Below are positions 861 to 50,330 of a stretch of 64,000 bases of DNA, piece by piece. Origin of the DNA: a virus; the IMG/VR virus record IMGVR_UViG_3300028027_000059, positions 1 to 64,000 of that record; one strand, 5' to 3'. The notes below the pieces were generated by a model. That model was not told where the DNA came from. It ran no database searches and saw nothing but the letters and a program-made list of their open reading frames with translations. The position numbers and the translations under genes were made by a program. Within the stretch, counting starts at the first letter, position 1. Every line of letters starts with the position of its first letter.

Positions 861-1058
861 TTTTAATTATTATCCATTTCGTATATTACTAAATCGATTT
901 CATCACGTACTTTATCTATTATTTCATTTATTTCATTAACATCAAGTAATTTGTGTTCTGAGTGATGTGTAATTGCTACGTTTAAACTGTAGTACAGTGT
1001 ATTTAATTCTTGTAATGTTAGTTCCATATTTTAATTTTATAACATCAATGTACGACCA

Positions 1059-1604
1059 TTACTCTGCCAAGTACAATCGATTATGATTGTATAATGCAAC
1101 GGGATTATCTTCGGTTAGTAATCCGTAGTTTTCCTTAACGTGCTCATATATTACACTTAATGGCTCATTAATCACTTCACCTAATAATTGAGCGAAGTAA
1201 TCGTTTGATGTTGTCACTGTTTCTTGCTCTGTACCTGGTAACCCACAATATGTTGCTTCACCTACCTCACTAATAAACATACCACTGTAGAATCCGTTTA
1301 ATTCGTGTCTATTCATGAATTGATCTGCATTACACCATATTGAGATACACTCAGTGTGTTTCAATGCGTCTACTGTCGTTGCATCAACTATATAGCCGTT
1401 ATTACCTATGAATTTACCTACACTGAATAATCCGAATGGCGAACCATGACCTAACATTATGATACGATCAACTCGAACCATTAATTCTTTAACTTGGTCC
1501 TTAGTTGCACCTCCATTTAATATAATGGCGTCGGTTAGGTTTGCATATATCGGTTTTAGGAAATCCGTTGATGCGTCTGTAGGGTGTATTACTAATGTTT
1601 TCAT
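1059..1604 (-). CDS. hypothetical protein
   Basis: 181-aa ORF with no recognisable motif. Confidence 0.45.
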   Translation of the reverse strand: MKTLVIHPTDASTDFLKPIYANLTDAIILNGGATKDQVKELMVRVDRIIMLGHGSPFGLFSVGKFIGNNGYIVDATTVDALKHTECISIWCNADQFMNRHELNGFYSGMFISEVGEATYCGLPGTEQETVTTSNDYFAQLLGEVINEPLSVIYEHVKENYGLLTEDNPVALYNHNRLYLAE

Positions 1605-1659
1605 ACGATAAAGATAGACACCTTACGGTGCCTATCCAAATTTACTAACCTAATCTAAA

Positions 1660-1938
1660 TTAATTCTCGTCTTCAATTTCAAAGTCGAATATTTCATCTC
1701 GTTTATCATCAATGATATCACCTAAATCGTTAAATGCATTGATAATATCACTACAAGCGTCACCTACTGATTTACCAATTTCGAATAAATTATCATCACC
1801 ATCAATGTCGTTTAATGTGTCTGAAGCATTATCTAACATGCTGTGAATTTCGACTAACTTTAATAATTGCTCTCTAGTTAATGTGATTAACTTTTCTTCT
1901 TTTGCTTCTAAACTTACTTTTACATTTGCTTTTGCCAT
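1660..1938 (-). CDS. hypothetical acidic protein
   Basis: The start was trimmed to MAKANVK (ATG at 1936-1938) because the conserved promoter-like motif lies inside the longer ORF. Confidence 0.4.
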   Translation of the reverse strand: MAKANVKVSLEAKEEKLITLTREQLLKLVEIHSMLDNASDTLNDIDGDDNLFEIGKSVGDACSDIINAFNDLGDIIDDKRDEIFDFEIEDEN

Positions 1939-2108
1939 AACTTTATTTTTTATTTTGTTTACGTGAATATAATTCGTCTTCAATGCCTATCCAATGTTTT
2001 CTCCACCATCTAGTGAATCGTGGGTTAGTATTATTTAGGGCATACGTTTCACCCATTACTAATAGTATTAATGATATAAATCCAAGGATGAATAGTATTA
2101 AGAATATT

Positions 2109-2357
2109 TTAAGCATTATCATAGCTATCTTCTTTTAACATTGAATTAACTTGATCTATAGTTAGTAACTCGCCTTTTTTAGCTTGATCCACTAACTCAA
2201 CCATATTAGCCCATAACATGTTTTTATCTTCGGCTAAGTAGTTATTTAATACAGTTTCAGCTAACGTTTCAGCGTCATCTCTAAATACTATTACTAATTG
2301 ATCATAAATTGAACTGATTTGTTCGTCTGTTAGGAGTTCGTCGTTACTGCTTGACAT
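2109..2357 (-). CDS. hypothetical protein
   Basis: 82-aa ORF. Confidence 0.35.
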   Translation of the reverse strand: MSSSNDELLTDEQISSIYDQLVIVFRDDAETLAETVLNNYLAEDKNMLWANMVELVDQAKKGELLTIDQVNSMLKEDSYDNA

Positions 2358-2788
2358 ATTTTAATTTTTTGTTTATTGGTAAGGTAAGTATAGAATTCTG
2401 CCAATGTACCATCGAAGTTAAGCATTTCATCATCAACTTCATCACGTTTCATTCCAAGTTCGTTTTTGAATGCTTTATACATTTCATCTAATATTTTAGC
2501 TTCGTCCGCTTCGTAATCCTTAGTTAAACGGCGTCTACGCTCTCCAAACATACATCTGATTTCGTGTTTCTTATCTGGATTAAGTTCATTAGCGATTGCT
2601 TCTTGCTCTAATACATCTTCATATTTGAGTTGCCAATAATAATCTGATACTTCGAAATCGCCATTTGGAATACGTTCGTCTAAACGATTATACTTGTGTA
2701 GCATTTGACGTGGCTGAAAGCGTCTCCACCAATAGAATTTATTGTAGGTATTCTTTCGAAACGTTGCTATTCTATCTTTTAATTCCAT
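2330..2788 (-). CDS. hypothetical protein
   Basis: 152-aa ORF. Confidence 0.4.
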   Translation of the reverse strand: MELKDRIATFRKNTYNKFYWWRRFQPRQMLHKYNRLDERIPNGDFEVSDYYWQLKYEDVLEQEAIANELNPDKKHEIRCMFGERRRRLTKDYEADEAKILDEMYKAFKNELGMKRDEVDDEMLNFDGTLAEFYTYLTNKQKIKICQAVTTNS

Positions 2789-3138
2789 CCATTTTCAGTT
2801 TTAACTTGAGTAATGTGCTTACAAGTGTGAGAATTACCTGACCAACCATAAGCAGGGCAAGTACAAGACCAAACATCATCTACACACTTAACTGTGTATG
2901 ATTTGCCTTTACTACCTGCAACTTCGGTTTCGTAATTATTTTTGAATGCTTCGTTTTTAGCACCCTTATACTCCTTTCTAAAGTGAGTAATGTGCTTATA
3001 ACCTAAATGGTTTGGGATTTCAGTCCATTTACCGTCGGCAATAACGTAACGTGTGCCTGGGTCGACTATAGAGTCAAACACAACGGGTACCATGTAACTG
3101 TGGACAATTAACTTGTCGTTTGTAATAATAACTGACAT
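2779..3138 (-). CDS. SWIM-type zinc-finger protein
   Basis: C-terminal WSCTCPAYGWSGNSHTCKHI fits the CxCxnCxH SWIM signature. Confidence 0.5.
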   Translation of the reverse strand: MSVIITNDKLIVHSYMVPVVFDSIVDPGTRYVIADGKWTEIPNHLGYKHITHFRKEYKGAKNEAFKNNYETEVAGSKGKSYTVKCVDDVWSCTCPAYGWSGNSHTCKHITQVKTENGWN

Positions 3139-3154
3139 AACCTTTAATTTTATA

Positions 3155-3170
3155 ACGTGAATATACGAAC
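3155..3170 (-). promoter_or_regulatory. conserved promoter-like motif
   Basis: Minus sense CGTTCGTATATTCACGT. The ATG of gene 2779..3138 follows ~25 nt further on, after TATAAAATTAAAGGTT. Confidence 0.4.
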
Positions 3171-3351
3171 GTTATAGTGCCATCCAACCTATTTATTCAA
3201 CCACTCATCAGCACCCATCTGCATTGCTTGAGCTGGTGTCATTGTTGGGTCTTCTTGCATATAGCGTAATGCATAATACACTACTTCGGCTTCTAGTCCC
3301 ATATCAAGTGCTTCCTCTAAGTAAACACCGATTGTTTTGATATCTTCTACT

Positions 3352-3549
3352 TTACCCATGATTTAGTCTTTCTTTTTTAATTTTAGCTAATCTAATCCAC
3401 TCAAGTTGTTCTGCTAGTGAAGCACCTCTTTGAGTTAATTCCATCCAAGCCTCTTCACCTAATGGCTTACGTTTTGACTTTTTATTCCAATTTCTGTCTA
3501 CTTTGTTTGACGCTTTGTCTTGAAACTGATCTCTGGTTTGAAATGCCAT
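3352..3549 (-). CDS. hypothetical basic protein
   Basis: 65-aa ORF. Confidence 0.3.
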   Translation of the reverse strand: MAFQTRDQFQDKASNKVDRNWNKKSKRKPLGEEAWMELTQRGASLAEQLEWIRLAKIKKERLNHG

Positions 3550-3577
3550 GTTTTGATTTTATTGATGATAAATATAA

Positions 3578-3853
3578 CTACTTTTTTACTGACAACCCGT
3601 AACCCATATCGAACCAACTGAATTCAAGTGATGCTTGTTGGTGATCGAATTTATAAACGTCTTGTATAGCCTTTATACTATACTCCTTCCATTCATTGTA
3701 CTGTTTTTTAGTCAGTTGGTGGTTTTGAAACCAATTTGGATCATCTTTAACCTCATCCCAAGTCTTACCCACATAAGCAAGTTGCTCATTAATTAAATGC
3801 ATTGGTAGTGTTTGCTCATTGAGCTTTGGTCGTCTTTGGAACAGGCGTTTCAT
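3578..3853 (-). CDS. hypothetical protein
   Basis: 91-aa ORF. Confidence 0.4.
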   Translation of the reverse strand: MKRLFQRRPKLNEQTLPMHLINEQLAYVGKTWDEVKDDPNWFQNHQLTKKQYNEWKEYSIKAIQDVYKFDHQQASLEFSWFDMGYGLSVKK

Positions 3854-3883
3854 GTAACATGGTTTTAGATGGTCGTAAATATA

Positions 3884-4156: not shown

Positions 4157-4213
4157 AACTTATTTGTTTAATAAAGATAAGATGGGGGTTTTGACACCCC
4201 CACTCACTTAAAA

Positions 4214-4960: not shown

Positions 4961-4988
4961 AACCTTTATTTTAATTTTATTTATAACG

Positions 4989-5003
4989 TAAATATAGTAA
5001 GGG
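4989..5003 (-). terminator. GC-rich hairpin
   Basis: gggggcattgccccc forms a perfect 6-bp stem between two genes. Confidence 0.4.
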
Positions 5004-5020
5004 GGCATTGCCCCCTCTAA

Positions 5021-5206
5021 TTAATTTAATACTCCTAAACGTGCATATAATATAGCCTCGCTATACGCCTCCATTTCGTCTAATGTTTCAGGCTCGTACA
5101 TTTCATCTATTCGATATACGATCTCTTCTCTATCCATACCTCTTAACGTTAATGAACGGGTCCAATTTTCAACTTCGAAACATTTAGTTATCAATTCTGC
5201 TGTCAT
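5021..5206 (-). CDS. hypothetical protein
   Basis: 61-aa ORF preceded by the promoter-like motif. Confidence 0.35.
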   Translation of the reverse strand: MTAELITKCFEVENWTRSLTLRGMDREEIVYRIDEMYEPETLDEMEAYSEAILYARLGVLN

Positions 5207-5218
5207 ACTTAATTATTT

Positions 5219-5233
5219 GACATGAATGTACGA
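5219..5233 (-). promoter_or_regulatory. conserved promoter-like motif
   Basis: Minus sense GTCGTACATTCATGTC, 14 nt upstream of ATG 5206. Confidence 0.4.
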
Positions 5234-5635
5234 CTATTGCTCTGCCACCCACTTACCGCTATCAATCAACTTAAATTCCATATCATTTCTATCTATGAAT
5301 TGATACGTTGCTGATTGTAGATTAAAATGCTCGTTAATGTGATTTAATACTTGCTCAGGTGTGAAATCAGAGCAACTGTATAAGTCAAATTGGAACATTG
5401 AAGGATGAATTGCATCCCAAACATGTATTGAAGCGTGAGATGTAGCTAGTGTTACTGTACCTGTTATTCCCTCGTTTCCAAGTTCATTAACATATACTGA
5501 GGTAGGTCCTGCTACAACTACCATTCCGACTTTATTTACTAATTCTCTAAACCATTGGTTTAGTACTTCTTCTGACTTGGGTGGGTTAGTAATATAACCC
5601 TTTACTAATAGGTGGAGGTGATTTGGTACGAACAT
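5234..5635 (-). CDS. S-adenosylmethionine decarboxylase-like pyruvoyl proenzyme (SpeH/SpeD class 1B family)
   Basis: ITGTVTLATSHASIHVWD...FDLYSCSDF aligns with bacterial SpeH VVIISESHLTIHSFPE...IDVYTCGD. The self-cleavage dipeptide is T-S rather than E-S. Confidence 0.6.
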   Translation of the reverse strand: MFVPNHLHLLVKGYITNPPKSEEVLNQWFRELVNKVGMVVVAGPTSVYVNELGNEGITGTVTLATSHASIHVWDAIHPSMFQFDLYSCSDFTPEQVLNHINEHFNLQSATYQFIDRNDMEFKLIDSGKWVAEQ

Positions 5636-7143: not shown

Positions 7144-8865
7144 CTACCACCACGCGCGCTTGCGGTTTACGACCTCTGCGTTTGCATATTCGTTCTTCGG
7201 TAACGCCCCAATTTGTTTCCTTGACCTGTTTGTAAAAGGCCTGCCTAATTTTTTCCCAGTATTCTTTATCTTGTTCCATAGACTTAAATGTACGACTTCT
7301 GGTTGTGCCTCCTCGGATCTTAATCTATTAATGTCAGCTTCTAACTCCTGAATAATTCGTTGGTTATTTTTAATACCAGCTAACATTTGCATTTTGATTT
7401 TTACATCATTATCCAATGTTCCTAGCTCAATATTATCTAATAGTGAATAGTGCTTTTCAGCTACACGTTCATTAGCTTCAGCTACTTGGGATGCCATTGC
7501 ATCTTCAAGACGTTGCTGTGATAGTTCAGCCATTCTACTATCGTCAAATTCTCTATTAAGTGAATTAACAACTTGTTGTATATCATCATCATTCATTTGT
7601 GGTGGTGGAACTGGTTCTGTTACATCTCCACCATTCCATTCTCTAGTTAATTCTTGAATAAGTTGTTCTCTGTTATAATTTTCTGGATCTAATAGGCCAT
7701 TCACATATCGTTCTCCATTAGGGCCATATGTGATATGATCTCCATTAGATGTTATTCTCATTCTTTCAACCCCATCATCTGTAAATCTAATATTTCCATT
7801 TCTAACTTCTAAATCACCATGAACTTGTATTTGTGCTGTTGGTGTTGAAGTACCTAACCCTATTCCCACATTGGTTGTAGTTGAACTAACTGTAAATGTA
7901 TTTGGGTTGTAAGTGTAAATAGTACCAGTACCTGTTGATGGCCAATTTGTTATTGTTGTACCACTACTTTCAACATGGTCTATTATACCACCTGATCTAT
8001 ATGAATTATCTATACCAGGTCCTTCTTCATACATTCCTGGTCTGTAATTACCATCCCTATACATTTCTAATTTATCACTTTCCTCTTGAGTCATTAATGT
8101 CTGATTAGGAACAGGCATTTCTTTAATTTCATTTCTGATTGCCTCTAATACTGCTGATGGTGCTTCTGAATCTAATGCCTCAATTCTTCTATCAGTAACA
8201 TCCCACCATGAGAATTCATTATCATGATTTGGGTCTATATTTTTAAAGCAAGCTACTTTATAACCTGTTTTCTTATTAATATTATAAATCAATATGCCAC
8301 GAGATGAATAGCGAGCATAGTATTGACCTGTATTGGTTGTAGTACACCATTTAGTATTAGCACCATATTTCATTGATGCCTCTAGTGATAGTGGTCTTAA
8401 GGATACCCAAGTATCGTCCTCGTATACCTTTTTAATTTGTTTCTCTAATTTCTTATCTATTAATTTGATTTCAGCTAATGCAACTGCTTGCTCAATTTCT
8501 TCCCATGTTGAATAAGACGTAACATCAGTGTTTTCAATTAATTTACGTTCAATGAATGAAGCGAACTTAGTAAATCGTTTTATATTTTCATCACCAATCA
8601 TATAATTAAAAGTACCAAGTAAGAATTGTAATGTATCTAAATCAAGTGTTTGAATATAATTATAATCTAATCCTGTATGTGATACTATATACTCAACTAC
8701 TTCATTACGATAATTATCTGAATGATGGTTGAGTTTGTTTTTATCTAATTTAATAAGCATTTCAATATACTTATTAGATTGATTTGGTGATATCATTTTA
8801 AAGACATCAATAGCGCTCATAGCGTAGAGTGGATGTTGTTTCTTTAATTCGTCTATTCTTGACAT
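7144..8865 (-). CDS. large hypothetical protein with a fibre-like G/T/S/N-rich central segment and a C-terminal coiled coil
   Basis: 573 aa. Central NVGIGLGTSTPTAQIQVHGDLEV resembles fibre motifs. An out-of-frame ORF 7076..7279 overlaps its 3' end. Confidence 0.45.
   Translation of the reverse strand: MSRIDELKKQHPLYAMSAIDVFKMISPNQSNKYIEMLIKLDKNKLNHHSDNYRNEVVEYIVSHTGLDYNYIQTLDLDTLQFLLGTFNYMIGDENIKRFTKFASFIERKLIENTDVTSYSTWEEIEQAVALAEIKLIDKKLEKQIKKVYEDDTWVSLRPLSLEASMKYGANTKWCTTTNTGQYYARYSSRGILIYNINKKTGYKVACFKNIDPNHDNEFSWWDVTDRRIEALDSEAPSAVLEAIRNEIKEMPVPNQTLMTQEESDKLEMYRDGNYRPGMYEEGPGIDNSYRSGGIIDHVESSGTTITNWPSTGTGTIYTYNPNTFTVSSTTTNVGIGLGTSTPTAQIQVHGDLEVRNGNIRFTDDGVERMRITSNGDHITYGPNGERYVNGLLDPENYNREQLIQELTREWNGGDVTEPVPPPQMNDDDIQQVVNSLNREFDDSRMAELSQQRLEDAMASQVAEANERVAEKHYSLLDNIELGTLDNDVKIKMQMLAGIKNNQRIIQELEADINRLRSEEAQPEVVHLSLWNKIKNTGKKLGRPFTNRSRKQIGALPKNEYANAEVVNRKRAWW
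7283..7296 (-). promoter_or_regulatory. conserved promoter-like motif
   Basis: Minus sense GTCGTACATTTAAG, upstream of ATG 7279. Confidence 0.35.
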
Positions 8866-11588: not shown

Positions 11589-11996
11589 TTATACTGTATG
11601 TTGAATTTGTACCCTAACACAATTTTGTGGTAATCGGCTTACGTGTCTATAATTGTTAATATAACCCATTATATTTGCCGAGCCAATAGCGTTTGCTGAG
11701 TGAGTGTAAACATCAAATATTGCTTCACCTTCTATCCATCTATCAACTAACCACTTAGCACAATCGTATCCTGTTTTTTCAGTGATATTGTTGTAGTCTA
11801 ATTGGTAATTTTTATAGACGTTTGTACGCCATTCTTTCATAGCACTATCACCTAAATCATGATCTAGAGATACTAATTCAATATTATTGAATCCAATTTT
11901 TTCAATTGTACTAACAAATTCGTCATAGTTTCTAACTATAACCCACCCTTCATCAATTGGGGTTCTAACATCGTCTAAGTATATTCTTTGTTTCAT
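11589..11996 (-). CDS. DHDLG-motif domain protein (possible receiver-like, cyclic-phosphate-processing domain)
   Basis: RIYLDDVRTP...VSLDHDLGD...TGYDCAKWL...HSANAIG. Lies between the kinase and the phosphoesterase. Confidence 0.35.
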   Translation of the reverse strand: MKQRIYLDDVRTPIDEGWVIVRNYDEFVSTIEKIGFNNIELVSLDHDLGDSAMKEWRTNVYKNYQLDYNNITEKTGYDCAKWLVDRWIEGEAIFDVYTHSANAIGSANIMGYINNYRHVSRLPQNCVRVQIQHTV

Positions 11997-12682: not shown

Positions 12683-12883
12683 TTAATTTATATATTCAGT
12701 TAATAATTCTTTAGCGCCTACAACATATTGTAATGCTCTTAATTTACATTCATCTTTAAACGGTTTACCGTTTTTAATATTCATATCCCATTGAGGTTCA
12801 CCTCCATTAGCCAACCCAGTAAAGAATCCATCTTCACTGAATATAACGAATTCATGTACTTTGGGTTCTTTTACTTTTTTCAT
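12683..12883 (-). CDS. hypothetical protein
   Basis: 66 aa. The promoter-like motif abuts its ATG. Confidence 0.4.
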   Translation of the reverse strand: MKKVKEPKVHEFVIFSEDGFFTGLANGGEPQWDMNIKNGKPFKDECKLRALQYVVGAKELLTEYIN

Positions 12884-12945
12884 GACGTGAATATAAGAAG
12901 GGGACTCTGACGAGCCCCCTAACTTATTATCATATATAAATAGCT

Positions 12946-14456: not shown

Positions 14457-15245
14457 TTATTTATTATTTAATATCCCTAAATGTACGTCTCCATCTTTGA
14501 CAACCAAATATTGATTTTGTCCATATTCAAGTGTGTCAATGAAATAATATCTACCACCTGTAGCTTTGCCTTCAATATCAATTTGATCTTGAGGTGTATG
14601 TCCTACTACTTGTCTAATGAAATTTTTAAGTGTTTCTTTATTAGTAAGTTTACCATCTTGAGTTGACTTATTAGCAGCCATTAACGCTTTAGGTCTAATC
14701 CAAATTGGACCTTGAAACGTTTCCTCACCATAACCTCTAGCTCCAATCCACTCAGTTTCACTTATCATTTTAAATGAACGATAAGCAATTAAGCCTGGTT
14801 GGTGTTTGAATAATTCATTAACCTTATCAACCATATTAGTTACATCCCAATCTCCAATCATATCATCTAACCATTCACTACTTAACCCAGCATGTGAACA
14901 TACGAAATCATCAAATTGATAAGCTACTTGTAAGTGTTTCTTATTCTCACCTAATAGGATTTTGAAAGTAGGAGCCATTACTGTTTGATAACCTGATGTT
15001 GATGTGTCATCAATTTCAGGTAAATAATGGTAATCATGATTACCTAATAACAATACTACTTCTTTATCAGTTGATTGTTTAAATTCAATGATGTCTAAGA
15101 AATTATCCATTTGCTTTACACCTGGAATTGTAAATGAATCAAAATAATCACCTACGAAGACAAATCTGTCTGCGTCTTGCTCTTGTTCAGTAATTTGTTT
15201 CCAGTAAGGACGGCCATGAATATCGCCTATTAATACGGTTTTCAT
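14457..15245 (-). CDS. PPP-family Ser/Thr (lambda-type) protein phosphatase or phosphoesterase
   Basis: Motifs GDIHG, GDYFD, GNHDY and GHT. Confidence 0.7.
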   Translation of the reverse strand: MKTVLIGDIHGRPYWKQITEQEQDADRFVFVGDYFDSFTIPGVKQMDNFLDIIEFKQSTDKEVVLLLGNHDYHYLPEIDDTSTSGYQTVMAPTFKILLGENKKHLQVAYQFDDFVCSHAGLSSEWLDDMIGDWDVTNMVDKVNELFKHQPGLIAYRSFKMISETEWIGARGYGEETFQGPIWIRPKALMAANKSTQDGKLTNKETLKNFIRQVVGHTPQDQIDIEGKATGGRYYFIDTLEYGQNQYLVVKDGDVHLGILNNK

Positions 15246-15272
15246 AACTTAAATTTATAACCTTAATTATGC

Positions 15273-15497
15273 CTACCAAAACTTATACCATGCTTTCTCA
15301 ACTATGGGTTTTGGTGTTGAGCGTTTTATTGTACGATTAAGTAACAATGATGCTGTTTGATACATCTTATACTTATCATCTTCACTAAGATCTTTTAAAC
15401 TAATCTGTATTATAACGGGAGCTGTCGAATCGCCAGCTTGCATTTCGGTGTTAATTACTATATATTCCTTTCCGTTATTTTTAGTTAGTTTTATCAT
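15273..15497 (-). CDS. hypothetical protein
   Basis: 74-aa ORF. Confidence 0.35.
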   Translation of the reverse strand: MIKLTKNNGKEYIVINTEMQAGDSTAPVIIQISLKDLSEDDKYKMYQTASLLLNRTIKRSTPKPIVEKAWYKFW

Positions 15498-15515
15498 AGC
15501 GGATATAAATATATG

Positions 15516-15795: not shown

Positions 15796-16161
15796 TTAAT
15801 CCCACCATTTTTCTATATTATTACTTAAATATTTAAATAATTCTTGTCTTGCTTTATTATGATCTTTTGTAGACTTATTCATTCCTTCAGTAGTCCACTC
15901 TGTAGTCTCTGATAGATACTTATCAAGATGATACTCAGTTTGCACCTTTTCTATCATATCAATTGCTTTTAAAATATCATCAGCATCTCGATTATTATAA
16001 AAATGAACACCGTCTCTACGAATATATTTTTCAGTATCAATTAATTTTTGTTTTAATATCTCGTAAACGAAATAATAATCCCAATCACGATCTCTCCATA
16101 TAATTGGAATCCAACGTATTAATTTACGTAGTTGTTTTATTTTTTGTTTAATTCTATACAT
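15796..16161 (-). CDS. hypothetical protein
   Basis: 121-aa ORF. Confidence 0.4.
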   Translation of the reverse strand: MYRIKQKIKQLRKLIRWIPIIWRDRDWDYYFVYEILKQKLIDTEKYIRRDGVHFYNNRDADDILKAIDMIEKVQTEYHLDKYLSETTEWTTEGMNKSTKDHNKARQELFKYLSNNIEKWWD

Positions 16162-16175
16162 AACATTAATTTAGA

Positions 16176-16195
16176 GTAGAAAGTTGGCCTATCCA
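16176..16195 (-). terminator. perfect hairpin
   Basis: ggcctatc-caaa-gataggcc. Confidence 0.45.
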
Positions 16196-16212
16196 AAGAT
16201 AGGCCTTAACTT

Positions 16213-16386: not shown

Positions 16387-16445
16387 TAATGTAATTTTTG
16401 TTTTATTATAATTAAATATACAACCTAATTCTGCCATCTCCAATC

Positions 16446-23362: not shown

Positions 23363-23416
23363 ACTTTTAATTTTTAACGGCTATAAATATCTGGAAAGTA
23401 AGAGTTACTAATATAA

Positions 23417-23442: not shown

Positions 23443-23444
23443 TG

Positions 23445-26351: not shown

Positions 26352-26360
26352 ATTCTTATA

Positions 26361-26375
26361 ATGTGAATATACGAC
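26361..26375 (-). promoter_or_regulatory. conserved promoter-like motif immediately upstream of tRNA-Glu
   Basis: Minus-strand sense GTCGTATATTCACAT. Confidence 0.4.
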
Positions 26376-26398
26376 TTTTATTTCGCCATTCACATTTG

Positions 26399-28050: not shown

Positions 28051-28458
28051 TGTTTTAAATTATAGTTTTAACCTACATCAGTATCACATTGCCCTGGTTT
28101 ATGCGGATTGCCCTTTTGATCGACTGTAATCGAACTAAAGCAATACCCTAGCGCTAACGTACTCATACGTTCTGCTTGCCATTGACTGTTATGTAATATG
28201 TTTGTTTTCATTGTTTGCGTCTATAAATATATACAAATCCTGTTTCCCGTTAAATATAAAACACCTTTCGTTGACATCCAAATAATAAGTTAGATTTCGT
28301 AAAGAGTTTTGATTGTTAATTTTTACTGTTTTTGAATCCTTGAACTTTGAACTTTGAGGAATCATTATCAGTATCATTTTCAGAGTATGTCAGGCACGAG
28401 GCCTAACAGAATTGAAATCAACTCACTATTCTTCAATCAACTACTCGGTGTTAGTTTT

Positions 28459-28902: not shown

Positions 28903-28932
28903 AACTATTTTTATTTGATTAAATATATAATC

Positions 28933-29163
28933 TTATTCTGCCGTCTCCACATTTTCTGCTAAGATAACTTGTACGATTTTAGATTCTGATGCTGCTTTAA
29001 CTTCAAAATCACTCTCATCGTTATCAGTTAGATACTTAGTTACCCTTGCTTCAGCTTCAGTAACTGACATTGCGTCAACTAAATAAGCGATATTTTGTTT
29101 TTTTGCTTTACCTTTATCATCGATATCAGTAAATTGTACTTTTACTTGGAAAAATTGTGCCAT
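28933..29163 (-). CDS. hypothetical protein
   Basis: 76-aa ORF. Confidence 0.35.
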   Translation of the reverse strand: MAQFFQVKVQFTDIDDKGKAKKQNIAYLVDAMSVTEAEARVTKYLTDNDESDFEVKAASESKIVQVILAENVETAE

Positions 29164-29463: not shown

Positions 29464-29481
29464 GTTTTATTTTTATTTATA

Positions 29482-29495
29482 CTTAAATGTACGAC
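29482..29495 (-). promoter_or_regulatory. conserved promoter-like motif
   Basis: Minus sense GTCGTACATTTAAG, ~20 nt upstream of ATG 29463. Confidence 0.4.
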
Positions 29496-29505
29496 TGGAT
29501 TTTGC

Positions 29506-30096
29506 CTAATCCAACAATCCTAATGCTTTCATATTCTCTATGTGAGCTTCATCCATGTCCCAATCGTGTGCCACTGCTTGTACTTGAGTATTGTCCTCAA
29601 TATGTCGTACTTGATCTGGTGTTAGTGGATCTGCTACTAATAAAAAGTAGTCATTATAACATAACAATTCAAGATTATCTAGTAAATAGTTGTTTTTATT
29701 ACCATCTTTAAAATTAAGTAATAATGGCATTTTGTAATCTGTAACTCGACGTTCACTAAAACCACAATTATAACATTCTTCTTTTAAATAACCCTCAGCA
29801 ATTAACCTTGATTTAATTTTTTCAGGTGTAAATGATTCCCACCCAGTGCCCGTTTCAACTATAATTTTAACGTTTGGTTCCTTACGTCTATTAGGTAAGA
29901 ATTTAGGAATACCTTTACCACTTTGATTTTTATGAGCATCAAATAATGTTACACCTTCATCATTAGTATGAAGTTTAGCATACGGCTTATAGTGTTGGTA
30001 TGAGCAACCTAAATAGCGAGCGGCAGCACGATTTGATTTTGTAAATCGCATTGCACGTAGTATATCTTCTTTACTTAGTGGTTTTGCTTGAGGCAT
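29506..30096 (-). CDS. putative DNA-binding protein (N-terminal HTH, central CxxC)
   Basis: LSKEDILRAMRFTKSNRAAARYLGCSYQHY resembles an HTH. ECYNCG is a CxxC pair. Confidence 0.4.
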   Translation of the reverse strand: MPQAKPLSKEDILRAMRFTKSNRAAARYLGCSYQHYKPYAKLHTNDEGVTLFDAHKNQSGKGIPKFLPNRRKEPNVKIIVETGTGWESFTPEKIKSRLIAEGYLKEECYNCGFSERRVTDYKMPLLLNFKDGNKNNYLLDNLELLCYNDYFLLVADPLTPDQVRHIEDNTQVQAVAHDWDMDEAHIENMKALGLLD

Positions 30097-30501: not shown

Positions 30502-30801
30502 CTACAATTTATTAATCAAATCTCTACATTCAATACATCTATCGTATTCTTCTTTTTCAACGAAGTATTCGATTGCTGCTTCAAGAGATGGTTTGAATTT
30601 ATCTTTATTTAATTGAAGATAATAATCTGAATTTGCTACTTCAAACAATTCTATACTTGATTTCTTACGTTTAACCGCATCTTTAATAGCAACAATAACC
30701 TCCTCAATCACTACCTCTTTAACTTCAGGTATTTCATGTAGTTGGTTATAGTCAGCACCAGGTTGAACGTGAACTCTAAACACTGGTATTTGTCTTTTCA
30801 T
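30502..30801 (-). CDS. hypothetical protein
   Basis: 99-aa ORF. Confidence 0.4.
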   Translation of the reverse strand: MKRQIPVFRVHVQPGADYNQLHEIPEVKEVVIEEVIVAIKDAVKRKKSSIELFEVANSDYYLQLNKDKFKPSLEAAIEYFVEKEEYDRCIECRDLINKL

Positions 30802-31127: not shown

Positions 31128-31155
31128 GGTCTGTGTTTATATATAAATATGTGAA

Positions 31156-31698: not shown

Positions 31699-31730
31699 AA
31701 ACTAAATTTTCGATAAATATAATTAAAGTT

Positions 31731-32609
31731 TTAGAATATTTCAAATTCGATTTCAGTATCTCCAAATCCCCATGATTCGGTATTCTCTGTTTGTTTCTGA
31801 TAGATTATAGCTCGGTATTGGTCATTTGATTTTTTATTAATACCATCAGCTATTCCACCACCACCCCAGCCTTTAGAACCATGGTTAATGTGAAACATAG
31901 GTGGGTTGTATATTGCTTTTAGTCCAAAACCATGCATTACTGCTTTCTTCTGAACATTAGTATCAGCAAATAATGGGTATATTAGTTCTTCTTCAAATCC
32001 ACGAATACCATCCCAAACATGTTTAGGTGCTAATTGAAAATCACCACAGCAATTAATAATACTATAATCATCACCTGCCATTGTTTTTTCTTCATCCTTA
32101 CGTTCTTCAGAGTTAATATAAATGTAATCTCTTAATTCACTCCATTGGTCGTACTTTAATTCACCACCATGAAATTCTTTAATGATATCCCAAGTCATTT
32201 CTCTTCTACTAAGGGTAATAAATGTATTATCATCGCTATTTTTAATAATAGTTTCTATATCTTCACGTTTTGGGTGGATGATATCAATGTTAGTAGAAAC
32301 GATATAATCGCCTGTTGCTCTTCTAATGCCTATATTACGAGCTAGTACTTCGCAGCATTTTTGGGCCTGAGGATCGTTGTTTGTTAGTATTGAAGCCACT
32401 TCGGGCGTAATAACAATATGTTTTAAATTACCTTTAAGTTGTAAATTGTCTTTAATATCATAAAGCAAACTATGATTTTCTGAGTTCCAATCAATATAGA
32501 ATACTTCATCGTAAGTAGAGATTGCTGAATTGATAGCATAAGTTGCTCTTTCAGCTAAGTGTCCACCGTAATTGTCATTTCTAGATATTATTATTGCTGA
32601 TATTTTCAT
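31731..32609 (-). CDS. glycosyltransferase family 2
   Basis: N-terminal KISAIIISRND and a GT-A DxD region. Confidence 0.55.
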   Translation of the reverse strand: MKISAIIISRNDNYGGHLAERATYAINSAISTYDEVFYIDWNSENHSLLYDIKDNLQLKGNLKHIVITPEVASILTNNDPQAQKCCEVLARNIGIRRATGDYIVSTNIDIIHPKREDIETIIKNSDDNTFITLSRREMTWDIIKEFHGGELKYDQWSELRDYIYINSEERKDEEKTMAGDDYSIINCCGDFQLAPKHVWDGIRGFEEELIYPLFADTNVQKKAVMHGFGLKAIYNPPMFHINHGSKGWGGGGIADGINKKSNDQYRAIIYQKQTENTESWGFGDTEIEFEIF

Positions 32610-43143: not shown

Positions 43144-43161
43144 AATATTATATTTTGATAT

Positions 43162-43174
43162 AAATATATACGAC
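43162..43174 (-). promoter_or_regulatory. conserved promoter-like motif
   Basis: Minus sense GTCGTATATATTT, upstream of ATG 43143. Confidence 0.35.
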
Positions 43175-44118
43175 TACATAGAACCTGCAACTTTATCGCA
43201 AAGATCTGGTGAATCTTTGTAGGGGCACCATTTACAGCTGCTTTCACCTACATTTTTAAGGTACGACTTTATTTGTGGTTTACCACTATCGTCGAAACAA
43301 TCCTTAATAAATGATTGAAAATTTTCTACTGCTTGTTTACGCTTATTTTTCCCACTTGCTGGTTTGAAGGATTGGGTTCTGGGGATAGCATATTCGGATT
43401 GTTCCCAGATTTTTCGTTTAACGATGAAGTACTCGACTTCAATTTTCTCAACATCGAACCCAAATTGTTTTGAAAAGTACTCCTTGTATAGTAGGATTTG
43501 AGCAATTTTACTATCGTCTCTCTTTTCGGAGTCGCTCCATCCTCTTGTTGATGTTTTGATATCATATATATAAACTTTATCTAATTCTTCATCATACAAC
43601 ACAAAGTCAATAAATCCTTTTAAAAATACGTTATTAGCTACATTTAGTAATAGAGGTATCTCTATACCTAGTAAGCGCATTTTACGTATAGTAAATAATT
43701 TATTTCTATTTTTCTTAATAAAGTGAAGTATTGCTAAGGCATCTTCAAAAAATTCACCCATTTCTACAGGAGAACTAAAATGGTTACCTACTTTTTTATA
43801 CTCTTCAGCATATATAGTAGAAAATTTAGATTGAAATATATCAACTAAATCCATAGCATCAGCAGCAGTACCACTCACTTCATACATTGTACTAATGTAT
43901 GCTTGCAATGTTTCGTGAAACGCTGTACCAAATACAGTATGAATACTAGCTTGGTATGGTTGTTTGTTCTCTACATAGGTAAGATACCATTTGTGAGGAC
44001 ACGACGCCCACATAGAAAACTGAGAATAAGACACGCTTCTTTGGAATGCATGGTTAATCTCAGGTTTCTGATAATTTTTTATTTTAAGCTCTATCTCAGT
44101 AGATTTTCTTTTCGCCAC
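43174..44118 (-). CDS. PD-(D/E)xK nuclease of the Cas4/RecB family with an Fe-S Cys cluster
   Basis: N-terminal Cys (ASCPHKWYL) plus C-terminal CKWCPYKDSPDLC. IDFVLYDEELDKVYIYDIKTS is a D..E..K motif. Confidence 0.6.
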   Translation of the reverse strand: MAKRKSTEIELKIKNYQKPEINHAFQRSVSYSQFSMWASCPHKWYLTYVENKQPYQASIHTVFGTAFHETLQAYISTMYEVSGTAADAMDLVDIFQSKFSTIYAEEYKKVGNHFSSPVEMGEFFEDALAILHFIKKNRNKLFTIRKMRLLGIEIPLLLNVANNVFLKGFIDFVLYDEELDKVYIYDIKTSTRGWSDSEKRDDSKIAQILLYKEYFSKQFGFDVEKIEVEYFIVKRKIWEQSEYAIPRTQSFKPASGKNKRKQAVENFQSFIKDCFDDSGKPQIKSYLKNVGESSCKWCPYKDSPDLCDKVAGSM

Positions 44119-46714: not shown

Positions 46715-46734
46715 AACCTTATATTTTTATCAAA

Positions 46735-48357
46735 TTACATTCCAAATCCTGCCATTCCACCCATATCGTCTGCTTTCTTTTCATCTGGCTTACTATGGAT
46801 AACACATTCAGTCATAAGTAATGTAACTGCGGCTGCCGCTGCATTTTCAATTGCTGAGCGTACTACCTTAGTTGGATCAATAATACCTGCTTCAAATGCA
46901 TCAATTGTATTGTTTTCTGATAAATTAGGTACAATTGTATTTCCATCTTGAGCATATATTTGATTCCACCACTCATTAGCATCTTCACCAGCATTAGTTA
47001 AGATTTGTTTGAATGGAGTAGCACATGCTTTAAATACAATCTCAGCACCTTTACTCTTATCATCTTTACCATTAAGTACAAGTACTTTTCTAGCATGTAA
47101 TAATGCCACACCAGCACCTGGTAAAATACCTTCATCTAAAGCGGCTTTAGTTGCTTGTAAAGCATCGTCTAAACGATCTTTTTTCTCTTTCATTTCGATT
47201 TCAGTACCACCACCTACATTGATAATAGCAACCCCACCAACTAACTTACCTAAACGCTCTTGTAAACGCTCAACGTTATAAGGTGTTGTTTCTTTATCTA
47301 ATTGTGTTTTTAAAGACATGATACGCTCTTCAATCTTATCAGCATCACCTTTACCATCAACAATTGTAGTTGTTTCTTTACCCACAGTAACTACTCTAGC
47401 TTTACCTAACCAATCCATGTTTAATTTAGCTAATGACATACCTCTCTCAGTTGAAATAACTGTAGCGCCTGTCAAAATAGCCATATCTTCTAACATTTGG
47501 TTTCTTAAATCACCAAATCCAGGAGCTTTAACAGCAGCAACTTTTAATGCACCTCTACCCTTGTTCATAACAAGTGTTGCTAATGCTTCACCTTCAATAT
47601 CTTCAGCAATAACAAGTAACGATTTTTGTTCAGCAGATACTTTCTCTAGTAATGGTAATAAATCCTTAATTGTACTAATTTTCTTATCGTAAATTAAAAT
47701 TAATGGATCATTTAATACAGCTGACATTGAAGTATTATCAGTCACAAAGTAATGTGATTTATAACCTCTATCAAACTGTAAACCCTCTACTACCTCAAGT
47801 GATGTCTCACCTGAACGAGATTCTTCCACTGTAACTACCCCATCTCTACCTACTTTATCTAACGCTGTAGCTACTAACTCACCTATTTCAGTGTCGCCAT
47901 TAGCTGATAATGTTGCTACTTGCTTGATTTGTTCTTCACCTGTAATGTCTTTAGACATTGCTTTTAATTCAGCAACTACTTCTTTAACAGCGGCTTCAAT
48001 ACCACGCTTAATTTGAGTTGCATTAGTTGAAGCATGTGATGTAGCATTCAATGCTTGAGAAGCAATTGAATATGCTAACACAGTAGATGTTGTTGTACCA
48101 TCACCTGCTGCATCAACTGTTTTTTGTGCTGCCTGCTTAATAACTGTAGCGGCCATGTTTTCAATTGGATCTTCCAAAGTAATGGTTTTAGCTACTGTAA
48201 CACCATCTTTAGTTGATGAAACCTCACCATGTTCTTTTTCAATCAAAACATTACGTCCGAAAGGACCCATTGTTGTCGCAACTGCTTTATTTACTTTTTC
48301 GATGCCCGCTTGTAGCTTTTGTTTTGCTTCGCGATCGAAACTAATTATTTTACTCAT
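46735..48357 (-). CDS. groL: chaperonin GroEL (Cpn60)
   Basis: 540 aa with GroEL-wide similarity. ATP-binding DGTTT and a GGM-type C-terminal tail (MGGMAGFGM). Confidence 0.9.
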
Positions 48358-48364
48358 TTTTTAT

Positions 48365-48655
48365 TTATTTTTCTATTACTGCAATTAAATCTGTTTCTTT
48401 TAACACAACGTACTCATCACCATCAACGGTAATTTTAGTACCTCCGAATGCAGGAAACACTACTGTTAAACCCACTTCTAAAGTTGTTTTTACATAAGCA
48501 CCTGTTTCAGTAGTTCTACCTAATCCAATTGCTACAATCTCACCCATTAGCGGTTTTTCCTTACCCATATCAGGTACTAGGATGTTACCATACATTTCTT
48601 CTGTGTTGTCAGTTTGTTTAATCACAACGTTGTTGTGTAACGGAATAATTTTCAT
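48365..48655 (-). CDS. groS: co-chaperonin GroES (Cpn10)
   Basis: 96 aa, MKIIPLHNNVVIK. Lies directly upstream of groEL. Confidence 0.8.
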   Translation of the reverse strand: MKIIPLHNNVVIKQTDNTEEMYGNILVPDMGKEKPLMGEIVAIGLGRTTETGAYVKTTLEVGLTVVFPAFGGTKITVDGDEYVVLKETDLIAVIEK

Positions 48656-48683
48656 TTTATAACTTTGTTTATTTTTAAATATA

Positions 48684-48695
48684 ACGACAGGTCTC
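48684..48695. promoter_or_regulatory. 12-mer ACGACAGGTCTC upstream of groES
   Basis: The same 12-mer occurs in the opposite orientation at 49204-49215 upstream of hsp20. Confidence 0.35.
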
Positions 48696-48708
48696 GGGTT
48701 TTCAAAAC

Positions 48709-49161
48709 TTATTTTTTCTTGCTTGGTTTTAACTCAAGCGGAGCATTAATCGAAATTTTCTTTGGTGCTCTTTCTGCTGAAACTGGAATGTCAATTATTA
48801 ACAATCCTTTATCCATAGTAGCTGTTAATTGATTTAAATCAAATTTCATTGCTACTTTCCATGCTAAATCAAATGAACGTCTAGCTATACCTCTTTGGAT
48901 ATAAGGACGGTATTCATCTGTTGCCTTTCTGTCGTGGGTAATTCTAAGTGTATCTCCTTCTACTTGGATATCTAAGTCTTCTTGATTGAGACCTACTACT
49001 GCTAATTCGAAACGTAAACCGTTTTCGATTTCATAAATGTCAACTGGATAGTTGATTTTGCTGTCTAATGTATTGAATGGGGAATTTACATCTAAAAAAT
49101 TCTTCCAAACAATGTCGAATGGGTCCATTGCCCAATGTTGTAATTGTGTCATTTTGTTCAC
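48709..49161 (-). CDS. small heat-shock protein (Hsp20 / alpha-crystallin domain)
   Basis: ACD core FELAVVGLNQEDLDIQVEGDTLRITH...RSFDL. Confidence 0.8.
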   Translation of the reverse strand: MNKMTQLQHWAMDPFDIVWKNFLDVNSPFNTLDSKINYPVDIYEIENGLRFELAVVGLNQEDLDIQVEGDTLRITHDRKATDEYRPYIQRGIARRSFDLAWKVAMKFDLNQLTATMDKGLLIIDIPVSAERAPKKISINAPLELKPSKKK

Positions 49162-49199
49162 ATTTTGTGCTCCCCTAAGGTAAGCGGTTTAATAATAAA

Positions 49200-49224
49200 A
49201 TTTGAGACCTGTCGTATCTCAAAT
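49200..49224. promoter_or_regulatory. inverted repeat ATTTGAGA-N9-TCTCAAAT upstream of hsp20
   Basis: Contains the shared 12-mer GAGACCTGTCGT (reverse complement of ACGACAGGTCTC). Confidence 0.35.
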
Positions 49225-49240
49225 ATAAATATATCCAAGA

Positions 49241-49963
49241 TTATATTTTCGCGAGAATTATATAAGAAGATTGTTGAAAATCTTCGGTCATGAAATCTAA
49301 TTTCATAGCACCATCATTTGAAACATAAGCATTACCTGTAGCTCCATAATTAGCATCGAATATAGCTTTTAAATAATCTGCATTGAATTTTAATGTTGTA
49401 GATTCCATAGCTAATTCTGTAATTGGAATTTCAAATTGTATTTTATTTGAGTGTCCTTCGGGTTCACCTAATGTAAAGTTTACCTTATGTTCATTATCTT
49501 CGTTTGTGTATGCTTTTAATATTGTTGTATCCGAATTTAATGCTTTTTTAGCTTTAATCCAATTGTTAATAAAGTCATTATCAATAGTAAATTCATAGTC
49601 GCTTTCAAATTCACTAACTGTAAAATTAACGTTTGGTGCTAACATTAAGTTTGCTAAAGCATATTCTAAGTTATATTCGCTGTCGGCTAATAATAGTTTA
49701 GTTGCTATTTTACCTTCAAGCTGTATATCCATAGTAAGGAATTGGTTACATATCCCGACAAGCTTTAAAAATTTGGACGTGTCGAATATTACAAATTCAC
49801 TATCTGGAAATTCGAATGGAGCCGTAACTACACCTACCATATCTTTAGTTGGTGAGAATGTTTTGATAGTAACAGTGTTATCTTTAACTGTCCATTTTAC
49901 TTTTTCGCCTATACCATTTAGGTAGTACTTATCGATTATCGATATTAATGATTGTTTTTCCAT
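49241..49963 (-). CDS. putative sliding clamp (gp45-like)
   Basis: 240 aa, a size typical of phage clamps. Lies between the polymerase and chaperone genes near the clamp loader. Call is from context only. Confidence 0.35.
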   Translation of the reverse strand: MEKQSLISIIDKYYLNGIGEKVKWTVKDNTVTIKTFSPTKDMVGVVTAPFEFPDSEFVIFDTSKFLKLVGICNQFLTMDIQLEGKIATKLLLADSEYNLEYALANLMLAPNVNFTVSEFESDYEFTIDNDFINNWIKAKKALNSDTTILKAYTNEDNEHKVNFTLGEPEGHSNKIQFEIPITELAMESTTLKFNADYLKAIFDANYGATGNAYVSNDGAMKLDFMTEDFQQSSYIILAKI

Positions 49964-49964
49964 A

Positions 49965-50303
49965 TTATTTCCAAAGTATTTGAATTAAAATTATGCAAAC
50001 TCCTAGGCTTAAACAAGTAAGTGTTTTAGGAGTTAATGGTTCATTAAACATAAAATGAGACATAGCAGTAAATACTATTACTCCTATCCCAAACCCAATT
50101 AAACGTGAAGGCCATATTTGCCCATCATATGCACCTACGAAATTACGTACCGAATACATAAATAACAATGATATAGGTACACCCATACACGCTACTAGTA
50201 ATGTATTATTTTTAAACCACTCTATTTTCATTTGTCCTTGTAGTTGGAAAAATGTAAGCACTTGGGCTATTAGACCAAATATAAAACCTTTTAATAATTG
50301 CAT
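49965..50303 (-). CDS. membrane protein
   Basis: 112 aa with three to four TM helices. The promoter-like motif abuts its ATG. Confidence 0.4.
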   Translation of the reverse strand: MQLLKGFIFGLIAQVLTFFQLQGQMKIEWFKNNTLLVACMGVPISLLFMYSVRNFVGAYDGQIWPSRLIGFGIGVIVFTAMSHFMFNEPLTPKTLTCLSLGVCIILIQILWK

Positions 50304-50304
50304 A

Positions 50305-50317
50305 ACGTGAATATATA
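50305..50317 (-). promoter_or_regulatory. conserved promoter-like motif abutting a start codon
   Basis: Minus sense TATATATTCACGTTATG. The same arrangement occurs at 12885-12897. Confidence 0.35.
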
Positions 50318-50330
50318 ACCTTTATTGTGA

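Follow-up and report, generated by a model that had tools for sequence, protein, structure and literature searches.

A short sequence recurs in front of many genes and a tRNA in the 64,000-nt stretch of DNA formed by positions 1 to 64,000 of IMG/VR virus record IMGVR_UViG_3300028027_000059 (hereafter, the window), and the question that it raises is whether this repeat is a promoter and, if so, which RNA polymerase (RNAP) holoenzyme reads it and which genes it serves. Since the gene content of the window is T4-like and its relatives are metagenomic, with none close in GenBank, the window is, as judged from these comparisons, part of the genome, about 160-185 kb long, of an uncultured T4-like phage. 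We find that the repeat belongs to a larger element, referred to below as class A, that has the marks of a promoter, and early or middle genes are the best-supported assignment for it.

The preliminary description of the window had reported at least 13 copies of an 18-mer, which was searched here as GTCGTAYATTCACGTTAT. With up to three mismatches allowed, GTCGTAYATTCACGTTAT yields six matches, all on the minus strand, against 0.12 in shuffled sequences. This 18-mer turns out to be the 3′ half only of a three-part element, TTGG-N3-G(G/T)CA-N9-TCn-TAYATTYA-nGTTA, of about 39 bases, the fuller consensus of which reads (a)tTTGG-N3-G(G/T)CA-aAa-N5-gTCG-TAYATTYA-nGTT-A. The consensus as first written was right in its 3′ half and missed the −33 and G(G/T)CA boxes. 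An iterated 39-nt position weight matrix (PWM) built from the window and its relatives (consensus atTTGG...GGCAaAa.tc.ggTCGTATATTCAagtTat) retrieves from the window 34 sense matches of at least 12 bits and no antisense ones, with 0.4 in shuffles. The strand bias and the excess over shuffles show that the repeated motif is real, and the original count of its copies was too low.

We further used the core TAYATT[CTG]A as an anchor in a sequence set consisting of the window and 20 related loci (426 kb), with box positions counted from the first T of the core. In the 121 core copies located no more than 50 nt from a gene start, TTGG occupies positions −23 to −20, G(G/T)CA positions −16 to −13 and TC positions −3/−2. 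According to the preliminary description, a motif equally common inside coding regions in either orientation would speak against a promoter; the full element has no antisense copies in the window, and the upstream boxes are absent from the 255 intragenic and 227 antisense copies of the core. When sites are instead picked by their upstream boxes only, core positions 0, 1, 4, 5 and 7 come out as T, A, T, T and A, a pattern that no antisense site shows; in promoter numbering, the frequencies in this upstream-anchored set, which includes false positives, are 0.58 for T-12, 0.68 for A-11 and 0.67 for both T-8 and T-7.

When 8-mers were counted de novo, TATATTTA was the commonest intergenic one, with 43 sense intergenic copies against 1.1 expected. 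Neither this count nor a σ70 scan revealed enrichment of TATAAT or TTGACA, and σ70 consensus promoters were rejected, as the scan shows no excess of them (85 found, 92 expected). The C at core position −2 is present in 43% of class A sites, and CGT is thus found only in a subset. Across all phage loci there are about 160 unique class A sites. Scanning viral contigs with the exact three-part pattern gave 21 matches, mostly from the same clade; the sole match from an unrelated small phage (L028/L029) lies inside an open reading frame (ORF), is taken as chance and therefore gives no independent support for recognition by the host polymerase.

Ten of the 13 sites listed in the preliminary description are strong members of class A (17.8-28.4 bits): 1047-1056, 1961-1978, 3155-3170, 4986-5000, 5219-5233, 12885-12897, 26361-26375, 29482-29495, 48678-48688 and 50305-50317. 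The site at 7283-7296 is a variant member with a full core (14.2 bits), an upstream box shifted by one base and an ATG at +13. The other two were rejected: 43162-43174 (TATATTTAT) is devoid of upstream boxes and is assigned to another class (see below), and 25955-25966, with a PWM score of −17, is merely a tRNA trailer. For the true sites, the reported location 0-35 nt upstream of a start codon or a tRNA holds.

The offset of the ATG from the first T of the core peaks at +12/+13 (43 of 139 sites that were selected independently of gene calls), and real ORFs begin at these ATGs. Further peaks, at +8 and +10, were discarded; they come from conserved intragenic matches and not from gene starts. 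In all phage loci taken together, the ATG stands at +12/+13, i.e., 4-5 nt after the box, in 53 of the 160 unique sites; in the window, nine sites of at least 10 bits have it there, as does site 7292 (8.1 bits) at +13. Since the same ATG of the polymerase gene and of the next gene is kept in relatives that lack a promoter there, we consider the start codons behind the sites to be real. Judged from geometry only, about a third of class A sites would give leaderless mRNAs, with the ATG at the predicted start. At the remaining sites, leaders of 9-26 nt (most often 18 nt) are found, with 60-77% A and at most 6% G at positions −13 to −5; GTT directly precedes the ATG in 44% of leadered sites, and the commonest heptamers are AAAGGTT and AAAAGTT. 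Thus, both spacing classes noted earlier, one with the motif abutting the ATG and one with an A/T-rich spacer and AAAGGTT, are present. No enrichment of Shine-Dalgarno sequences was found upstream of window genes, where positions −13 to −11 are A-rich. Upstream of all window genes, positions −13 to −1 are strongly A-rich and G-poor, with GTT often adjoining the ATG (AAAGGTTATG, AAAAGTTATG).

More than 20 related phage genomes from metagenomes have the class A element at orthologous positions. On both sides of the polymerase gene, its location is unchanged in relatives with a DNA polymerase identity of 75-96%, while the intergenic flanks diverge. In the alignment of polymerase promoters, T-12, A-11, T-8 and T-7 are invariant. 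A GC hairpin lies between the boxes of this promoter in some genomes, with compensatory changes in its stem, and is absent in others; with or without it, the TG of the −33 box, the TG(T/G)CAAA block and TA.ATTTA all persist.

The preliminary description had placed the motif often right after a GC hairpin. In the first 17,000 nt of the window, three of the four strong minus-strand terminator-like hairpins do abut a class A site; overall, a GC-rich hairpin overlaps only 11 of 67 unique sites. Because of this low number, and because G(G/T)CA is kept in 36 of the 56 hairpin-less sites, the hairpin is best read as an optional terminator of the upstream gene that does not explain the motif; an origin of the G(G/T)CA box from the hairpin was likewise rejected, as the box persists without it. 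In relative L035, positions 1-6182 (minus strand) hold a 6-kb block of 14 consecutive small genes, each with its own class A site and a conserved, near-identical leader (AAAATTAAAgGTTATG); many of these sites have a GC stem in the stretch from the −33 to the −7 box. This block is a candidate hyperplastic region for cassette-mediated gene shuffling.

Taken together, the strand bias, the presence of upstream boxes only at gene starts, the geometry, the orthologous conservation and the fixed ATG offset support the promoter reading proposed earlier. The statistical and comparative steps were computed; from them, we infer binding, start points and timing. The spacing of the element (TTG, 19-20 nt, TAnnTT) equals that of the −35 hexamer, 17-nt spacer and −10 hexamer of the σ70 family. 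Promoters of the primary σ factor of Bacteroidetes consist of a −33 TTTG and a −7 TAnnTTTG, and transcription begins 4-5 nt beyond the latter box (PMC6847099, PMC7366714, PMC9723704); their spacing is given as TTG-N17-23-TAnnTTTG (bioRxiv 10.1101/172254). For class A sites, a start 4-5 nt after the 8-nt box falls at +12/+13, which is where the ATGs are concentrated. In 65 Bacteroidota rpsU promoters from candidate host lineages, TTTG is found at −23 to −20 from the box, i.e., in the register of the phage TTGG. Class A thus has in common with the Bacteroidota σA (σABfr) promoter the −33 spacing, TA and TT at bases 5/6 of the box, the lack of TATAAT and transcripts devoid of Shine-Dalgarno sequences.

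The host to which such a promoter would be adapted is probably a freshwater member of Bacteroidota, because of the type of bS21 and the absence of Shine-Dalgarno sites. When compared with solved ribosomes, the phage bS21 (56108-56290, minus strand) matches best the Flavobacterium johnsoniae chain 7jil_z (43.8 bits), followed by the 63-residue bS21 chain 9i5v (41.3 bits), with all others at 27 bits or less. It keeps a tyrosine aligned to Tyr54 of F. johnsoniae bS21, a residue considered in PMC9723584 in connection with Bacteroidetes phages. Among bacterial bS21 genes, those closest to the phage gene come from Saprospiraceae/Lewinellaceae (57-64%), Chitinophagales, Algoriphagus and Flavobacterium (49-64% overall), in a search whose patterns were biased towards Bacteroidota. 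A-rich upstream regions without Shine-Dalgarno sequences have been described for Bacteroidetes (PMC6847099). GroEL homologues were tried as a further clue to the host and abandoned, since the search gave only metagenomic phage copies. As a separate observation, Flavobacterium rpsU leaders (L060, L067, L069, L072 and L073) carry, about 10-25 nt before the ATG, a strong Shine-Dalgarno-like GAGAGGAGGTGT that is unusual for the phylum and is missing from the phage bS21 gene.

We therefore propose that class A sites are probably promoters of early or middle genes that are read by the host RNAP with its primary σ factor in the Bacteroidota −33/−7 manner. Region 4 of σ would bind TTG at about −35 to −33 and region 2 would bind TAnnTT at −12 to −7, the 19-20 nt between the boxes being the Bacteroidota −33/−7 spacing. 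Transcription would start at the A located 4-5 nt after the 8-nt box. In about one third of the copies this A would be the A of the ATG, and the mRNA would have no leader; in the others, the start would be followed by a G-poor, A-rich leader of 9-26 nt without a Shine-Dalgarno sequence, which would suit a host that does not use Shine-Dalgarno pairing. The phage-specific blocks would be G(G/T)CA, at about −28 to −25, and TCG, at −15 to −13, in the place of an extended −10 element; they may make the promoter stronger, make up for the non-host A at −5 or serve as recognition sites of a phage factor. Some copies would be fused to the terminator hairpin of the upstream gene, with G(G/T)CA in the loop and the T-rich core serving as the terminator tail, and would form compact terminator-promoter cassettes similar to the promoter-early stem-loop (PeSL) elements of T4-type phages.

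Several observations weigh against this proposal. Four of the six defining bases are common to class A and the Bacteroidota promoter; positions −6 and −5 and the spacer box differ. T-12, A-11, T-8, T-7, T-6 and G-5 are nearly invariant in F. johnsoniae promoters (PMC6847099), whereas the phage has A at −5 in almost every copy (0.56 A against 0.15 G in the upstream-anchored set) and T or C at −6. Near phage gene starts, boxes ending in TA or CA number 182 and those ending in TG number 17, most of the latter being the TTTG of the −33 box; conversely, 80 rpsU regions of candidate hosts contain TAhhTTTG 78 times and TAhhTTTA 17 times. Canonical TAnnTTTG is depleted next to phage gene starts (7%, versus 18% within coding DNA). 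The usual tendency of early promoters in phages is to come close to the host consensus, not to depart from it. Candidate hosts are T-rich at −16 to −13 from the box, where the phage has G(G/T)CA, and TCG abuts the −7 box in class A, unlike in the Bacteroidota promoter. In Bacteroides and Flavobacterium, no more than 3.7-5.5% of transcripts are leaderless (PMC7366714, PMC9723704), i.e., 4-6% in Bacteroidota hosts against about 33% predicted for class A sites. Most of the weight of the host assignment itself falls on a single small protein and on translation signals.

Alternatively, class A sites may be middle-type promoters served by a host polymerase that a phage protein has redirected, through σ appropriation of the MotA/AsiA type or covalent modification, so that it reads TTGG-N3-G(G/T)CA near −30 and tolerates A-5. 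The 11-bp upstream block is located as the MotA box of T4 is, about 12 nt from the −10 element (PMC4122927 and general knowledge); G(G/T)CA is absent from promoters of the host lineages, the −7 box avoids the host G-5, and many genes behind the sites, those for DNA polymerase, clamp loader, helicase and UvsX among them, belong to the middle class of T4. Yet class A sites retain the TTG of a normal −33 element, while T4 middle promoters have no −35 element, and no separate host-like early class was found from which such a factor could be expressed first. Blocks of small ORFs with one promoter each are, moreover, typical of early regions. A search of the ORFs of the 64-kb window with Pfam and PHROG profiles revealed no MotA, AsiA or σ-like proteins (about 100 kb of the genome lie outside it), a single Sigma70_r1_1 match (E = 0.0037) being noise. 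On balance, we regard redirection as a tentative alternative; the holoenzyme that reads class A may contain plain host σA or be a host polymerase redirected by a phage factor. In a speculative version of it, which we consider rather unlikely, A-5 and G(G/T)CA would mark the promoters as “non-host”, to be read only by a polymerase re-programmed by a phage protein; such a system would do in Bacteroidota what σ appropriation does in T4, with no sequence relationship to MotA/AsiA, and leaderless mRNAs would then be favored by ribosomes containing phage bS21.

It is improbable that a phage-encoded σ factor, other than a late σ of the T4 type, replaces host σA and recognizes the whole element. The information content of the element is far above that of a host promoter, its −7 variant is private, and two thirds of the genome lie outside the window searched. 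However, no such factor was found in the 64 kb, and host σA reads the same −33/−7 positions and most of the same bases. To our knowledge, T4-like phages do not encode an early or middle σ factor with region 4.

A role of the repeats mainly as recombination or termination cassettes, or as RNA-level signals for 3′ ends or processing rather than transcription starts, is very improbable. Some copies are indeed fused to terminator-like hairpins with compensatory stem changes, and PeSL elements have been proposed to mediate gene shuffling (PMC4122927, PMC2839356); but the hairpin counts given above speak against it, the conserved part reaches downstream to a fixed distance from the ATG, and at the polymerase promoter the hairpin is lost in some relatives and the boxes stay. 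Finally, an alternative host σ factor, either σ54 (with TGGCA as the −24 box) or one of the extracytoplasmic function (ECF) type (with CGT as the −10 box), can hardly be entertained, for although TGGCA and TCGTA resemble these boxes and an ECF-type CGT motif was reported in F. psychrophilum (PMC9723704), the GG-N10-GC register of σ54 is not kept (12 bases after the first G stands gT instead of GC, and the second G is often T), GGCA is only 10 nt from CGT instead of the 16-17 nt of ECF promoters, there is no AAC −35 box, CGT is confined to a subset of sites, and neither factor explains the invariant TA..TT.A or the ATG offset.

The proposal that class A sites are read by the host polymerase with its primary σ factor can be set beside the genes that they precede. 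Behind them are found genes for DNA polymerase, clamp loader, helicase, primase, UvsX, GroES/GroEL, Que proteins, phosphoesterases and homing endonucleases, along with many unknowns, and no structural families are present among the 25 best-represented downstream families. Class A sites also precede tRNAs, within the window (core 26371) and in relative L032. The site in L032, at 1000-1200 (minus strand), stands before a tRNA-like gene on the strand opposite a baseplate operon, a divergent early/late arrangement as in T4. Since the downstream genes are small ORFs, replication genes, chaperonin genes and tRNAs, early or middle expression is the assignment favored here; the suggestion of an early-gene promoter in the preliminary description fits the same genes and the Que genes as well.

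Class A sites of the window, all on the minus strand, include the following (extents are given, with the first T of the core and the PWM score in brackets). At ten of them the ATG follows at +12 or +13. These are 62152..62190 (core 62165, 15.5 bits; ATG of gene 62153-61962 at +12, leaderless); 56290..56328 (core 56303, 21.1 bits; bS21 ATG 56290 at +13, leaderless); 53491..53529 (core 53504, 17.9 bits; ATG 53491 at +13), which overlaps the hairpin GTGGGGC-CTAAAAA-GCCCCA; 52900..52938 (core 52913, 31.7 bits), which has the ATG of the family B DNA polymerase gene (52901) at +12, leaderless, and is kept in 13 relatives in the alignment; 50302..50340 (core 50315, 26.7 bits; ATG 50303 at +12), whose −33 TTTG overlaps the end of the polymerase gene and which has orthologous copies; 16160..16198 (core 16173, TAAATTAA, 16.5 bits; ATG 16161 at +12), located behind the hairpin GGCCTATC/GATAGGCC; 15244..15282 (core 15257, TAAATTTA, 24.5 bits), with the ATG of a metallophosphoesterase gene (15245; Pfam assignment) at +12; 12882..12920 (core 12895, 23.2 bits; ATG 12883 at +12), fused to the terminator-like hairpin GGGGGCTC-GTCA-GAGTCCCC; 1603..1641 (core 1616, TATCTTTA, 22.0 bits; ATG 1604 at +12); and the class A-like 7279..7318 (core 7292; core 14.2 bits, full matrix 8.1 bits; ATG 7279 at +13), with a spacer one base longer.

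Sites with a leader include 58803..58841 (core 58816, 20.6 bits), with 18 nt to a QueE-like gene (start 58786) and orthologous copies in relatives; 48670..48708 (core 48683, 17.8 bits), with 16 nt to the GroES gene (48655); 31708..31746 (core 31721, 14.2 bits), with 11 nt to the ClpP gene (31698); 29478..29516 (core 29491, 28.4 bits), with a TTGGATT/AATCCA hairpin that has AGGCAA in its loop and 16 nt to gene 29463; 28914..28952 (core 28927, 18.8 bits), with 13 nt to gene 28902; 16407..16445 (core 16420, 21.9 bits), with 21 nt to gene 16387; and 14472..14510 (core 14485, 19.2 bits), with 26 nt to gene 14447. In the left part of the window, leaders are found at 5217..5255 (core 5230, 18.4 bits; 12 nt to gene 5206); at 4983..5021 (core 4996, 22.9 bits), which is fused to the hairpin GGGGGCA-A-TGCCCCC and has a 24-nt leader ending in AAAGGTT-ATG (4960), likely the true start of a DUF932 gene; at 4166..4204 (core 4179, TATCTTTA, 25.7 bits), fused to the hairpin GGGGG-TGTCAAAA-CCCCC, 11 nt to gene 4156; at 3152..3190 (core 3165, 28.4 bits), with 15 nt ending in AAAGGTT-ATG (3138); at 1958..1996 (core 1971, 19.2 bits; 21 nt to gene 1938); and at 1039..1077 (core 1052, TACATTGA, 22.6 bits; 13 nt to gene 1027).

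The site at 26358..26396 (core 26371, 25.2 bits) lies within the tRNA array, its predicted start being 8 nt before tRNA-Glu (26351), and that at 28245..28283 (core 28258, 17.0 bits) is upstream of small ORFs and the tRNA array. The site at 60274..60312 (core 60287, 22.5 bits) lies at the 3′ terminus of gene 61036-60248, with the QueC start (60203) 72 nt downstream, and has orthologous copies in L006, L007, L008 and L011. A weak class A-like sequence, TAATTTGA, at 46724..46762 (core 46737, 10.0 bits), precedes a clamp-loader gene (46714); its orthologue in L013/L016 is TAATTTTG. Three class A-like sequences are intragenic. The one at 43250..43288 (core 43263, TACCTTAA, 22.4 bits) is inside a PDDEXK nuclease gene about 95 nt upstream of a class B site and is kept as coding sequence by every relative; either an internal promoter or a chance resemblance within the gene could account for it. 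At 30608..30646 (core 30621, 24.1 bits), the next gene begins 110 nt from the predicted transcription start, which may point to a long-leader promoter, and at 11650..11688 (core 11663, 18.5 bits), 66 nt separate the predicted transcription start from gene 11585. A 323-nt region without a called ORF at 55253-55575 (minus strand) contains an inverted repeat (TGTGCTTTG...CAAAGCACA, near 55546) whose loop holds TATATTTA.

The sequence at 43162-43174, which had been listed with class A, led to a second motif, class B, with the consensus (T/C)ATATTTAT(at); it lacks upstream boxes, its first base varies, and an ATG follows 19-35 nt downstream. In the window, class B sites are present at 43159-43170, 31144-31155, 28224-28235, 25283-25294, 24176-24187, 23382-23393, 15504-15515, 12935-12946, 3876-3887 and 3569-3580; in relatives, they are found at L031 536 and 3491 and at L032 3545, 4803, 10947 and 11629. 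The site GTATATATTTATAT at 43159..43170 (minus strand, upstream sub-score −6.3) has its ATG (43143) 25 nt downstream, heads the glycosyltransferase operon and is kept in L007, L009-L013 and L021; CATATATTTATAT at 15504..15515 (minus strand) is 16 nt before ATG 15497; and the class B-like GATATTTATAG at 23382..23393 (minus strand), 29 nt before ATG 23362, heads an operon with a 712-aa cohesin-like protein. Class B precedes tail-fibre and baseplate genes in relatives and is also found before nrd, glycosyltransferase and homing endonuclease genes; for the latter reason we do not regard it as clearly late. It is probably late or a middle class and may be the clade's counterpart of the T4 late promoter. 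The gp55-dependent T4 late promoter, TATAAATA, has, like class B, an A/T-only −10-type box, no upstream element and a location before tail and baseplate genes, with a sequence that differs from class B; class A differs from it in having upstream boxes.

Among known systems, PeSL cassettes of T4-type phages, in which an early promoter and a stem-loop are repeated before small ORFs of variable regions (Arbiol 2010, PMC2839356; Comeau 2014, PMC4122927), have much in common with class A: a T4-like genome, a highly conserved early promoter that is repeated and a translation-start region conserved as part of the cassette. They differ in that the PeSL promoter is TTGACA-N17-TATAAT, whereas class A has boxes of the Bacteroidota type; the stem-loop or terminator to which the promoter is often joined is upstream of it in PeSL, whereas in class A a stem-loop is between the −33 and −7 boxes, at the minority of sites counted above and more frequently in the early block of L035; and a Shine-Dalgarno sequence precedes the ATG in PeSL, whereas class A has none and many of its copies are leaderless. 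T4 middle promoters (a MotA box at −30 and a σ70 −10 element) also have a phage-specific block about 12 nt upstream of a −10-like box and also serve replication genes. Their MotA box is, however, (a/t)(a/t)(a/t)TGCTT(t/c)A, and they have no −35 element, whereas class A is devoid of TGCTT and retains the −33 TTG; no motA or asiA homologue is present in the window.

Other features of the window concern its gene content. The gp43-type family B DNA polymerase has its best named match in Microcystis phage Mel-JY01 (36% identity), T4-like cyanophages being next; a megablast search of 12 kb against GenBank phages gave zero matches and thus no close relative there, and relatives are numerous among metagenomic contigs of 160-186 kb, IMGVR_UViG_3300008117_000025 and JACCDP011195399.1 being two contigs of the clade. 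The window and L021 differ in the genes found between those for dCTP deaminase and polymerase. The window, of 32% G+C and with all genes on the minus strand, also codes for clamp-loader subunits, RNA ligase, GroES, GroEL, HSP20, ClpP, bS21, 7-deazaguanine synthesis enzymes and a glycosyltransferase cluster, and has 24-25 tRNAs and one tmRNA; UvsX, helicase and primase are found in related loci. The 25th tRNA, at 27935-28007 (minus strand), has 44.5 bits in Rfam and was missed by ARAGORN. The tmRNA (tag ANEYALAA), ClpP, HSP20, GroES and GroEL (23444-23867, 31156-31698 and 46735-49161, minus strand) are a proteostasis set unusual for one phage. RNA-repair-like genes, including a T4 Rnl1-type RNA ligase, are found at 8902-9969 (minus strand) and in nearby small ORFs, which match cREC_REC, polynucleotide kinase and 2′-5′ RNA ligase/Acb1-like domains as a group. 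FolE (56467-57099), QueE-like (57938-58786), QueC-like (59403-60203) and QueD/PTPS (61297-61758) genes, all on the minus strand, suggest that the phage DNA is modified with 7-deazaguanine; if true, this could alter the recognition of promoter boxes that contain G.

Class A is a familiar kind of signal, set apart by the A at −5, the G(G/T)CA box and the predicted frequency of leaderless starts. Our literature search found no paper on promoters of T4-like phages of Bacteroidota, and this is, as far as the literature found shows, the first description of T4-like phage early promoters adapted to the transcription and translation machinery of Bacteroidota, with the −33/−7 geometry kept, Shine-Dalgarno sequences dropped and many starts predicted to be leaderless. 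Both the departure at −5 and the G(G/T)CA box hint that a phage factor may discriminate between promoters. The two classes, with about 160 class A sites, provide a promoter model for an abundant clade of uncultured freshwater T4-like phages, from which operons and timing can be predicted from sequence, and genetic tools for Flavobacteriia or Saprospiria could draw on class A sites as strong promoters. No basic concept is changed by these findings; rather, phage promoter biology is extended to a new host phylum.

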